Made by a program: the position numbers and the translations under genes. From the NCBI GenBank assembly GCA_964016885.1, contig OZ024747.1, positions 39,680,001 through 39,744,000 on the forward strand: a stretch of DNA of 64,000 bases, read 5' to 3'. The DNA is from Eledone cirrhosa. Taxonomy: Eukaryota. Positions 16,875 through 18,398 of the stretch are shown in pieces. Each line of letters opens with the position of its first letter. Position 1 is the first letter of the stretch. Below the pieces are notes generated by a model. That model saw nothing but the letters and a program-made list of their open reading frames with translations, ran no database searches and was not told the DNA's origin.

Positions 16875-18398
16875 AAACGGAAAAAATGAAACGAAATTTA
16901 ATTTCCCATTCTTAGTACGGCTGTTACTTAAATATAAGTATGTACACGTACATACATATATGTATACAGACGTACAGTAGTATGTATCTATACATACATG
17001 CACACATATATATATGGACGTTTGGATTCACCGAACATTTATTATAATGTTCGGTGTGTTTGTAAACAAACATCCCATATTAAGCCATAGTGTCTAGCAA
17101 CCATCGTTGCTCGTTTGTTCAACACCGACAAAGGAACGTTGTACTAGTTTCAAGCTTATTAGCTATCGTCAGCAACGTATACCTTCCTGCCAGATTGTTG
17201 AACGTATATACTTACCTTATGTTTATTAACGGCTGAGTAGCCCAATTTGCATATCGAGTGGATTAATCGGCCGTGTGCACCGAAAACGATAAACGGGAAA
17301 AATGAAACGAAATTTCATTTCCCACTCTTAGTACTTAAATACAGCGTCCCTTTGTCAGTGTTGAACAAACGAGAAACGATGGTTTCTAGAACTTACGGCT
17401 TAATACGGGATGTTTGTTTACAAACACACCGAGCATTATATTAAATGTTCGGTGAATCCATACGTGCATATATATATGTGTGCATGTATGTATATATATA
17501 TACATACTACAGTACGTCTGTATACATATATGTATGTACGTGTACATACTTATATTTAAGTAACAGCCGTACAAGAGTGGGAAATGAAATTTCGTTTCAT
17601 TTTTTTCCGTTTATCGTTTTCGCTGCACCCGGCCGATTAACCCACTCGATATGCAAACTGGGCTACTCAGGCGTTAATATGCATAAGGTAAGTATATACG
17701 TTCAAGAATCTGGCAGGAAGGTATACGTTGCTGACGATAGCTAATAAGCTTGAAACTAGTACAGCGTTCCTTTGTCAGTGTTGAACAAACGAGCAACGAT
17801 GGTTGCAATCACTACGACTTAATACGGGATGTTAGTTTACAAACACACCGAGCATTATAATAAATGTTCGGTAAATCCATACGTGCATATATATATATGT
17901 GTGCATGTATGTATATATATATACATACTACTTTACGTCTGTATACACATATGTATGTACGTGTACATATTTATATTTAAGTAACAGCCGTACTAAGGGT
18001 GGGAAATGAAATTTCGTTTCATTTTTTCCGTTTATCGTTTTCGCTGCACCCTGCCGATTAACCCACTCGATATGCAAACTGGGCTACTCAGGCGTTAATA
18101 TGCATAAGGTAAGTATATACGTTCAACAATCTGGCAGGAAGGTATACGTTGCTGACAATAGCTAATAAGCTTGAAACTGGTACAGCGTTCCTTTGTCAGT
18201 GTTGAACAACAAACGAGCAAAGATGGTTGCTAGACACTACGTCTTAATACGGGATGTTTGTTTAGAAACACACCGAGCATTATAATAAATGTTCGGTGAA
18301 TCCATACGTGCGTATATATATATGTGTGCATGTATATATATATATATACATACTACTGTACGTCTGTATACACATATGTATGTACGTGTACATACTTA
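16875..18398. repeat. Hammerhead-containing array of about 420 bp units: about 1.1 inverted units (16875-17334) then about 2.5 direct units (17342-18398)
   Basis: Unit starts recur at 17342, 17762 and 18183; HHRs at 17136-17178 (-), 17725-17767 (+) and 18146-18188 (+); flanked by (TA)n. Confidence 0.9.
17725..17767 (+). ncRNA. Minimal type I hammerhead ribozyme
   Basis: ACGUUG-CUGACGA-UAGC UAAUAA GCUU-GAAA-CUAG-UA-CAGCGU; palindromic stem III ACUAGU. Confidence 0.85.

Follow-up and report, generated by a model that had tools for sequence, protein, structure and literature searches.

Animal retrozymes have been linked to the reverse transcription machinery of other elements. "LINEs or PLEs" (PLE, Penelope-like element) were put forward as their movers in a survey of metazoan genomes (PMC7229834), and a 2026 preprint argued for mobilisation by PLEs from co-occurrence and from homology to the pseudo-LTRs (pLTRs) of these elements (10.64898/2026.07.22.740005). 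Both the mover of animal retrozymes and the copying of their circular RNA have so far been proposed, not demonstrated. PLEs leave characteristic insertions. Craig et al. described them as partial tandems in which one copy is inverted and 5'-truncated and a tail usually occurs at one of the ends (10.1101/2021.04.23.441226), and Frangieh et al. reported that the tail corresponds in vitro to the stretch between two internal reverse transcriptase (RT) start sites (PMC11167929). The Anolis PLE used in that work cut and extended both target strands in vitro (PMC11167929). All families of the Hydra clade are reported to insert in (TA)n, and Naiad PLEs also favour (TA)n (10.1101/2021.04.23.441226).

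The window analysed here is a stretch of 64,000 nucleotides from the genome of Eledone cirrhosa (assembly size 3.0 Gb). We consider, with a probability of about 0.6, that it contains an aged insertion of a high-copy, non-coding repeat with a hammerhead motif, likely inserted by a Hydra-type PLE and probably copied from circular RNA.

Layout of the insertion and its predicted ribozymes

Unit coordinates (u) are counted from the first base 3' of the predicted cut (u1). The insertion consists of two arms placed tail to tail, one of 462 nt and the other of ~1,060 nt, with one long and one short outer end, and both outer ends pass into (TA)n (Table 1). TRF gave a period of 421 bp with 2.5 copies over 17340-18401. 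The tandem array at a spacing of 420-421 bp that a preliminary description of this locus had reported is therefore real (unit 1 is 420 bp and unit 2 is 421 bp), and the inverted ~1.1-mer ahead of it (462 nt, 16873-17334) and the opening of the sense arm on TA/CAGCG, 0-2 nt off the predicted cut, are present as described. One hammerhead per junction had also been claimed; a core motif does lie at each junction, but the second sense core is mutated. Because this second motif carries a G8 to A change and a broken stem III palindrome, only one intact sense ribozyme is left in the window.

Table 1. Features of the insertion and of the remainder of the window
Feature	Position	Strand	Remarks
(TA)n microsatellite, left flank	16803..16872	.	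Likely target; TRF and junction sequence
Inverted arm	16873..17341	-	u229-421 then u1-274; ends at long outer end
"Tail" of ~60 nt	16873..16933	-	Absent from the other end; stretch from short to long outer end
Hammerhead motif of inverted arm	17136..17178	-	Type I; core 17172-17142 intact; U-A stem I variant
TA microhomology	17340..17341	.	Inner join of both arms
Unit 1	17342..17761	+	420 bp; starts at predicted cleavage-product end
Hammerhead motif 1	17725..17767	+	Type I; core 17731-17761 intact; predicted cut after 17761
Unit 2	17762..18182	+	421 bp
Hammerhead motif 2	18146..18188	+	Decayed core (18152-18182) with G8 to A (18157) and an altered palindrome (18179)
Partial unit 3	18183..18401	+	Stops at short outer end
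(TA)n microsatellite, right flank	18402..18431	.	Likely target
Second, independent family copy	52108..52494	+	30-nt inverted piece, u284-421, u2-218, (TA)n; core 52245-52275
Hydra-type PLE remnant	4409-5041	+
Hydra-type PLE remnant	21030-22817	-
Hydra-type PLE remnant	51500-52110	-
Hydra-type PLE remnant	56298-57274	-
Hydra-type PLE remnant	61564-62642	-
Remnant of another PLE type	11869-13644	+	Frameshifted; presumably Poseidon-like; weak Pfam RVT_1 and GIY-YIG matches
Remnant of another PLE type	23414-24283	+	Frameshifted; presumably Poseidon-like
LINE-type RT remnant	39241-42035	-	RVT_1, zf-RVT
LINE-type RT remnant	2493-3626	-	RVT_1, zf-RVT
Hammerhead-like motif of another family	~60400-60455	-	Different stems
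Tandem repeat	29035-29410		188-bp period
Tandem repeat	48898-49152		50-bp period
Tandem repeat	60953-61282		178-bp period; downstream of Hydra-type remnant

Between units 1 and 2, 16 of ~300 scored positions are different, and the window units are 11-13 differences away from the nearest unit of any other sampled locus, so the window copy is old. Three variants are common to units 1 and 2 and absent from the inverted arm; a single monomer circle therefore fails to account for both arms. Target-site duplications exceed 4 bp when present in non-LTR retrozymes, and one is indiscernible here because the flanks are (TA)n. The unit had been called ORF-less, and this holds: the longest stop-free stretch is 99 aa in the window dimer and 53 aa in a young array. 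A search of the unit for Pol III promoters found no full pair of A and B boxes with one consistent layout.

Hammerhead ribozymes with a very short palindromic stem III have been described as active in dimers (PMC4209133). The motif found here has this architecture, with a type I core, a stem I of 6 bp, a stem II of 4 bp, a stem III of 2 bp and a palindromic loop. Pair 10.1/11.1 of motif 1 is U-U instead of G-C; the G10.1-C11.1 pair is termed highly conserved in hammerheads (PMC4209133). Rfam returned no hammerhead at the gathering score in the whole window and none at E<=5 in 16800-18500, and the ribozyme call is based on core motif, folding and pair counts. Sub-threshold Rfam matches to miRNAs were rejected as artefacts of TA-rich hairpins.

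In the predicted fold, stem I is prolonged into a rod that closes the monomer. Circular folding against 40 shuffles each gave z values of -7.9 and -4.5 for the ribozyme strand of the window units and -10 for both a young unit and the sister family described below, and -3.3 to -4.5 for the opposite strand. In a hand-picked set of 16 distinct but related sequences from both families, 94% of the cells of the proposed rod and ribozyme pair. Covariation is slight: three pairs change on both sides among these related sequences, a number reached in 96 of 500 shuffles, and the covariation score lies above all 500. One of the three is the stem I pair to which the preliminary description had drawn attention (U-G in one family and G-U in the sister family). 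The CAACGU/CAGCGU variation in stem I noted earlier does exist, but as a rare, sporadic, one-sided change: the pair is U-A in 3 and U-G in 123 of 141 distinct ribozyme contexts. The ribozyme core is intact and its structure supported, with a non-canonical closure of stem II, and self-cleavage is predicted. Among the retrozyme dimers tested in the 2026 preprint, one of nine cleaved (10.64898/2026.07.22.740005). Further families of hammerhead-like motifs with different stems occur in the window (Table 1) and in the flanks of L046, L061, L062, L100, L145 and L164, and these motifs recur in unrelated flanks.

The repeat family, its outer ends and its candidate helpers

Exact searches of the genome gave 6,316 matches for a 28-mer of the unit and 8,818 for a 25-mer over the cleavage site, with none for controls. 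The candidate retrozyme family suggested earlier for this lineage is dispersed in thousands of copies, which range from monomers to long tandem arrays. It has 8,818 intact ribozyme junctions, compared with the one intact sense motif of the window copy, and runs of at least two consecutive complete hammerhead motifs occur, for example in L080 and L079. A variant-core pattern had 12,485 genome matches, largely from a sister family (L141-L170) with units of 466-538 bp that align over the entire unit and have an expanded TA hairpin. The ribozyme core and rod are kept in both families, and the remainder of the units differs throughout. Unit GC is 0.376 (38%). Tandem and inverted arms follow each other without an internal region, and there is no LTR arrangement.

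At L093/L094/L137/L138 (C21), L095/L096/L135 (C28) and L087-L089 (C1), tens of diverged units form long arrays, and higher-order periods are seen in some of these. Long arrays that keep insertion-type ends are satellites born from single insertions; those on C21 and C28, like the window copy, open with an inverted arm, in their case ending at the short site. The unit is also present at very high summed depth in two sequencing runs of unspecified type, X5 and X6 (organism D), and X5 contains the same loose end of long site and (TA)n. Neither run covers the unique flank of the window, so they cannot be taken as expression or as the same species. No run recorded as RNA contains the unit, and three runs presumed to be RNA yielded nothing or its TA-rich part alone, which speaks neither for nor against expression.

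It is the outer ends of the insertions, left unused in the preliminary description, that are informative. Among the 73 sampled outer ends that are uncut by a locus edge, 65 lie at two internal sites (34 at a long site, u267-274, and 31 at a short site, u206-222) and 8 lie elsewhere, and TA repeats adjoin 59 of the 65 typed ends. In unit 1, 61 nt separate the two sites. Both ends could be typed in 20 of 29 inverted pairs, and 18 of these 20 combine a long with a short end (binomial p ~2e-4). Exact junctions of the long end with (TA)n number 3,808 genome-wide, and the outer ends of the sister family lie at two equivalent sites. The family also has the 5'-truncated partial tandems, inverted arm and one-sided tail of PLE-type insertions. 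Since the unit ends obey the same pattern as the Penelope-like elements of the host, PLEs likely copy the unit, and mobilisation of the repeat by PLE-type machinery is very probable from these ends.

A young PLE family in the same genome, to which one of the window remnants belongs, has units of 3,531 bp with a 784-aa frame that contains DKT, CxCx5C and YRDD. Forty of its ends were mapped (L101-L134). They fall into two sites with 80 nt between them, each of the 40 adjoins TA repeats, and long and short ends are combined at 7 of 7 inverted loci. The candidate helper L132 has DKT, a CxCx5C linker, a C-terminal GIY-YIG-type domain and (TA)n flanks. By these motif patterns and its TA flanks it fits the published definition of the Hydra clade; the same definition led us to replace Neptune, considered earlier, as the identity of the local PLEs. 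Pfam gave no match for the L132 protein, and many of its homologues carry PF26215. Frames are also intact in a second Hydra-type family, in which two or more recurrent ends adjoin TA repeats. Two of the five Hydra-type remnants in the window come from families with intact frames elsewhere in the genome. On these grounds the Hydra clade is a likely mobilising clade, and the two Hydra-type families examined are candidate helpers; neither of them shares sequence with the unit. Naiad PLEs, with their preference for (TA)n, would fit the flanks as well.

At L131-L132 (C1:437.20-437.21 Mb), autonomous Hydra-type copies of 3,531 bp stand in tandem and have long and short ends, and neighbouring copies differ by 1 base. 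Rolling-circle copying may extend to the autonomous element as well. A pattern search of its pLTR found no canonical hammerhead core.

PLE-like ends would also be expected if the unit were an ordinary pLTR of an autonomous PLE, of which 5'-truncated fragments are seen, or a satellite that had arisen locally from such a pLTR. Of the 57 retrozyme families of Xenopus, 24 match Repbase entries, nearly all of them PLEs, at pLTRs (10.64898/2026.07.22.740005), and our comparison covered two of many local PLE families. Upstream of the ribozyme, however, lies another unit and never an ORF: the 400 nt upstream of the inner end contained a match to a PLE protein at 0 of 66 loci. The preliminary description had named constant attachment to a PLE ORF as the mark of a pLTR, and these loci lack it; the unit is free of such an ORF. 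The 29 unpaired inner flanks likewise contain no PLE sequence in a fixed junction with the unit, and dispersed multimers have primary insertion ends on both sides. An origin as an ordinary pLTR is most improbable on this evidence. We also considered that the insertion at 52.1 kb might be a PLE/retrozyme chimera and rejected this, as such a chimera recurs in none of the 66 loci and 29 flanks.

Inner ends and the RNA template

The position of inner ends bears on the form of the template. The first 100 matches of the 28-mer on contig C1 gave 45 loci and 76 arms, after overlapping loci, the near-duplicate L059 and the long-array continuations L088 and L089 were dropped. This sample was picked by the u7-34 motif, which inflates the crossing rate and cannot conceal a peak at u1. 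Inner ends are scattered along the unit, with 0 of 76 within 5 nt of the cleavage site (u417-u5) and 1.7 expected from the number of crossings. At least one cleavage site is read through by 64 of the 76 arms, with 108 crossings in total and no stop there, and the junction bases are nearly invariant. The clustering of 5' ends at the cleavage site that had been anticipated is thus absent; random ends were among the outcomes named beforehand as refuting the earlier reading. The start of the window array at the cut had been taken as evidence of a self-cleaved linear template, and this is not upheld, as such starts in the family are no more frequent than chance.

The sense arm of the window could still have ended by run-off of the RT at the 5' end of a self-cleaved linear RNA. 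It starts 0-2 nt off the predicted cut, and one further insertion (L028/L100/L181) begins at most 4 nt from it; among L001-L180 these are the two clean starts at the site. Run-off is improbable nonetheless, given that none of the 76 unbiased inner ends lies there and that the window sense arm itself passes two more cleavage sites. The junction type of L028/L100/L181 has 1 exact match genome-wide, and a control microhomology junction has 2. The window join also has a microhomology of its own. The TA at 17340-17341 also closes the inverted arm, whose last bases (TTAAATA, 17335-17341) were templated following a slip of 9 nt. The inner join is therefore a 2-nt microhomology, and the minus strand at the join (~u218-234) is similar to the cleavage-site sequence over ~17 nt. 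With family ends scattered, the TA shared and this local resemblance, the window start is best read as microhomology plus chance.

Two apparent signals at the cut were discarded. A 17-mer count of inverted joins there gave 212 matches, but on inspection 10 of 10 proved to be an ordinary variant of the unit and the corrected pattern had 1; apparent u1 starts in BLAST maps against a single reference mostly shifted upstream with a junction-spanning reference. The two arms of L039, and likewise those of L079, share their starting position in the unit and overlap by 16-20 nt at a hairpin. These overlaps suggest fold-back synthesis as a second route to inversion.

Repeated units within young insertions carry information on whether the template was a circle. 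L080 has 7 full units over both arms, with 0-1 differences at ~300 positions, and its haplotype (a 39-mer with two variants) has 8 genome matches, all within this insertion. The haplotype of L039/L044 has 5 genome matches, which lie without exception in a single arm of its insertion; one unit in the plus arm of L044 is without the private variant. In L054 and L079, two unit types alternate. These patterns are the leavings that would be expected from rolling round monomer or dimer circles, and they favour such a template. Rolling-circle copying is favoured in particular because the repeated-unit haplotypes of two young insertions are absent elsewhere in the assembly. Identical units are no proof of a circle, since local amplification after insertion does occur, as in arrays of 20-60 diverged units and in the inner block of L079, and donors of the haplotypes may be missing from the haploid assembly. 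On balance these sequence patterns lean towards a circle as the template of at least some of the family. The origin from self-cleaved or rolling-circle RNA that had been proposed for this locus is therefore retained for the rolling-circle template, on the private haplotypes and alternating units, and dropped where it relied on the start at the cut as proof of a cleaved linear RNA.

PLE-type mobilisation could also have begun from uncleaved, linear read-through transcripts of genomic arrays, with a slow or incidental ribozyme and no circle; identical units would then reflect homogeneous young donors or amplification in place. In vitro, the Anolis PLE mainly used unprocessed, uncleaved RNA (PMC11167929). 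The non-canonical closure of stem II fits this course, as do the differing units of many insertions, the window included, and the long arrays at hand as possible donors. It is harder to reconcile with the two haplotypes tested, both of which are without a donor elsewhere in the assembly, with L080 units that are identical across both arms, and with a ribozyme core and rod kept across two families that have otherwise diverged along their units. We regard the linear course as rather unlikely. A more radical proposal is that the 421-nt circles replicate and mutate as RNA, viroid-like in animals, and that Hydra-type PLE proteins only archive them. If true, this would account for the missing DNA donors of both tested insertion haplotypes, but lost or unassembled polymorphic donors do so more simply, and replication as RNA is highly improbable.

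A pathway by way of circular RNA, which we prefer, would run as follows. Tandem copies would be transcribed, and adjacent ribozymes would pair via the palindromic stem III and release 421-nt monomers and sometimes dimers, which a host ligase would circularise. A PLE endonuclease would nick both strands of (TA)n, and reverse transcription would begin at internal sites of the RNA, the long one for one strand and the short one for the other. The RT would then travel round the template for a variable distance, and the two cDNA ends would be joined at short microhomologies, which would give the inverted structure. In the window this would have produced arms of 462 nt and ~1,060 nt, with the join beside the cleavage site most likely through microhomology and chance. 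The parts of the model that can be read from the sequence itself are the copy number, two fixed internal sites for the outer ends ~60 nt apart, (TA)n flanks, tail-to-tail arms of which one has a long and the other a short end, scattered inner ends and read-through of the ribozyme site.

Comparison with known retrozymes and Penelope-like elements

By the sequence criteria of two published accounts (PMC7229834; 10.64898/2026.07.22.740005), the family is a non-LTR retrozyme, for which cleavage and circles are predicted. The family is new within a known class, and its window copy is decayed. The two-site ends, one-sided tail, (TA)n targeting and helper clade are not described for retrozymes in the consulted passages of these accounts, and searches of the open literature turned up nothing on this family or on tail-type retrozyme ends. 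The ends of the family bear a fingerprint of PLE reverse transcription and indicate a clade, and candidate helper ORFs are intact in the same genome; the in vitro assay published for PLEs therefore offers a direct test of the helper question.

Metazoan non-LTR retrozymes, as reported from coral, mussel and axolotl (PMC7229834) and from vertebrates (10.64898/2026.07.22.740005), resemble the family in their tandem units, which are non-coding and each have one type I hammerhead, in low GC (<50%; 38% here), in thousands of copies from monomers to long arrays, in a predicted highly paired monomer and in the presence of PLEs in the same genome. The unit of 421 bp (466-538 in the sister family) is longer than the 170-400 nt given in one account (PMC7229834) and within the 51-972 bp given in the other (10.64898/2026.07.22.740005). 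It differs from these retrozymes in that it has no homology to the two local pLTRs compared.

Hydra-clade PLEs are described as inserting in (TA)n as partial tandems with an inverted 5'-truncated arm and a one-sided tail (10.1101/2021.04.23.441226), as the repeat does, but they code for an ORF and the repeat does not. Tail length is ~60 nt in the repeat, 80 nt in the local Hydra-type family and 30-40 bp in PLEs of the literature (10.1101/2021.04.23.441226). Sequence common to the repeat and the local Hydra-type PLEs is limited to pyrimidine-rich ends that finish in TAT. The Poseidon element of Anolis is alike in that two internal RT starts downstream of its ribozyme define the tail and, as in the model proposed here, in that both target strands are cut and extended (PMC11167929). 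It is autonomous and belongs to another clade, and its start sites lie within the ORF and are reported not to be homologous to the target (PMC11167929), whereas both ends of the repeat share a few bases with the (TA)n flank.
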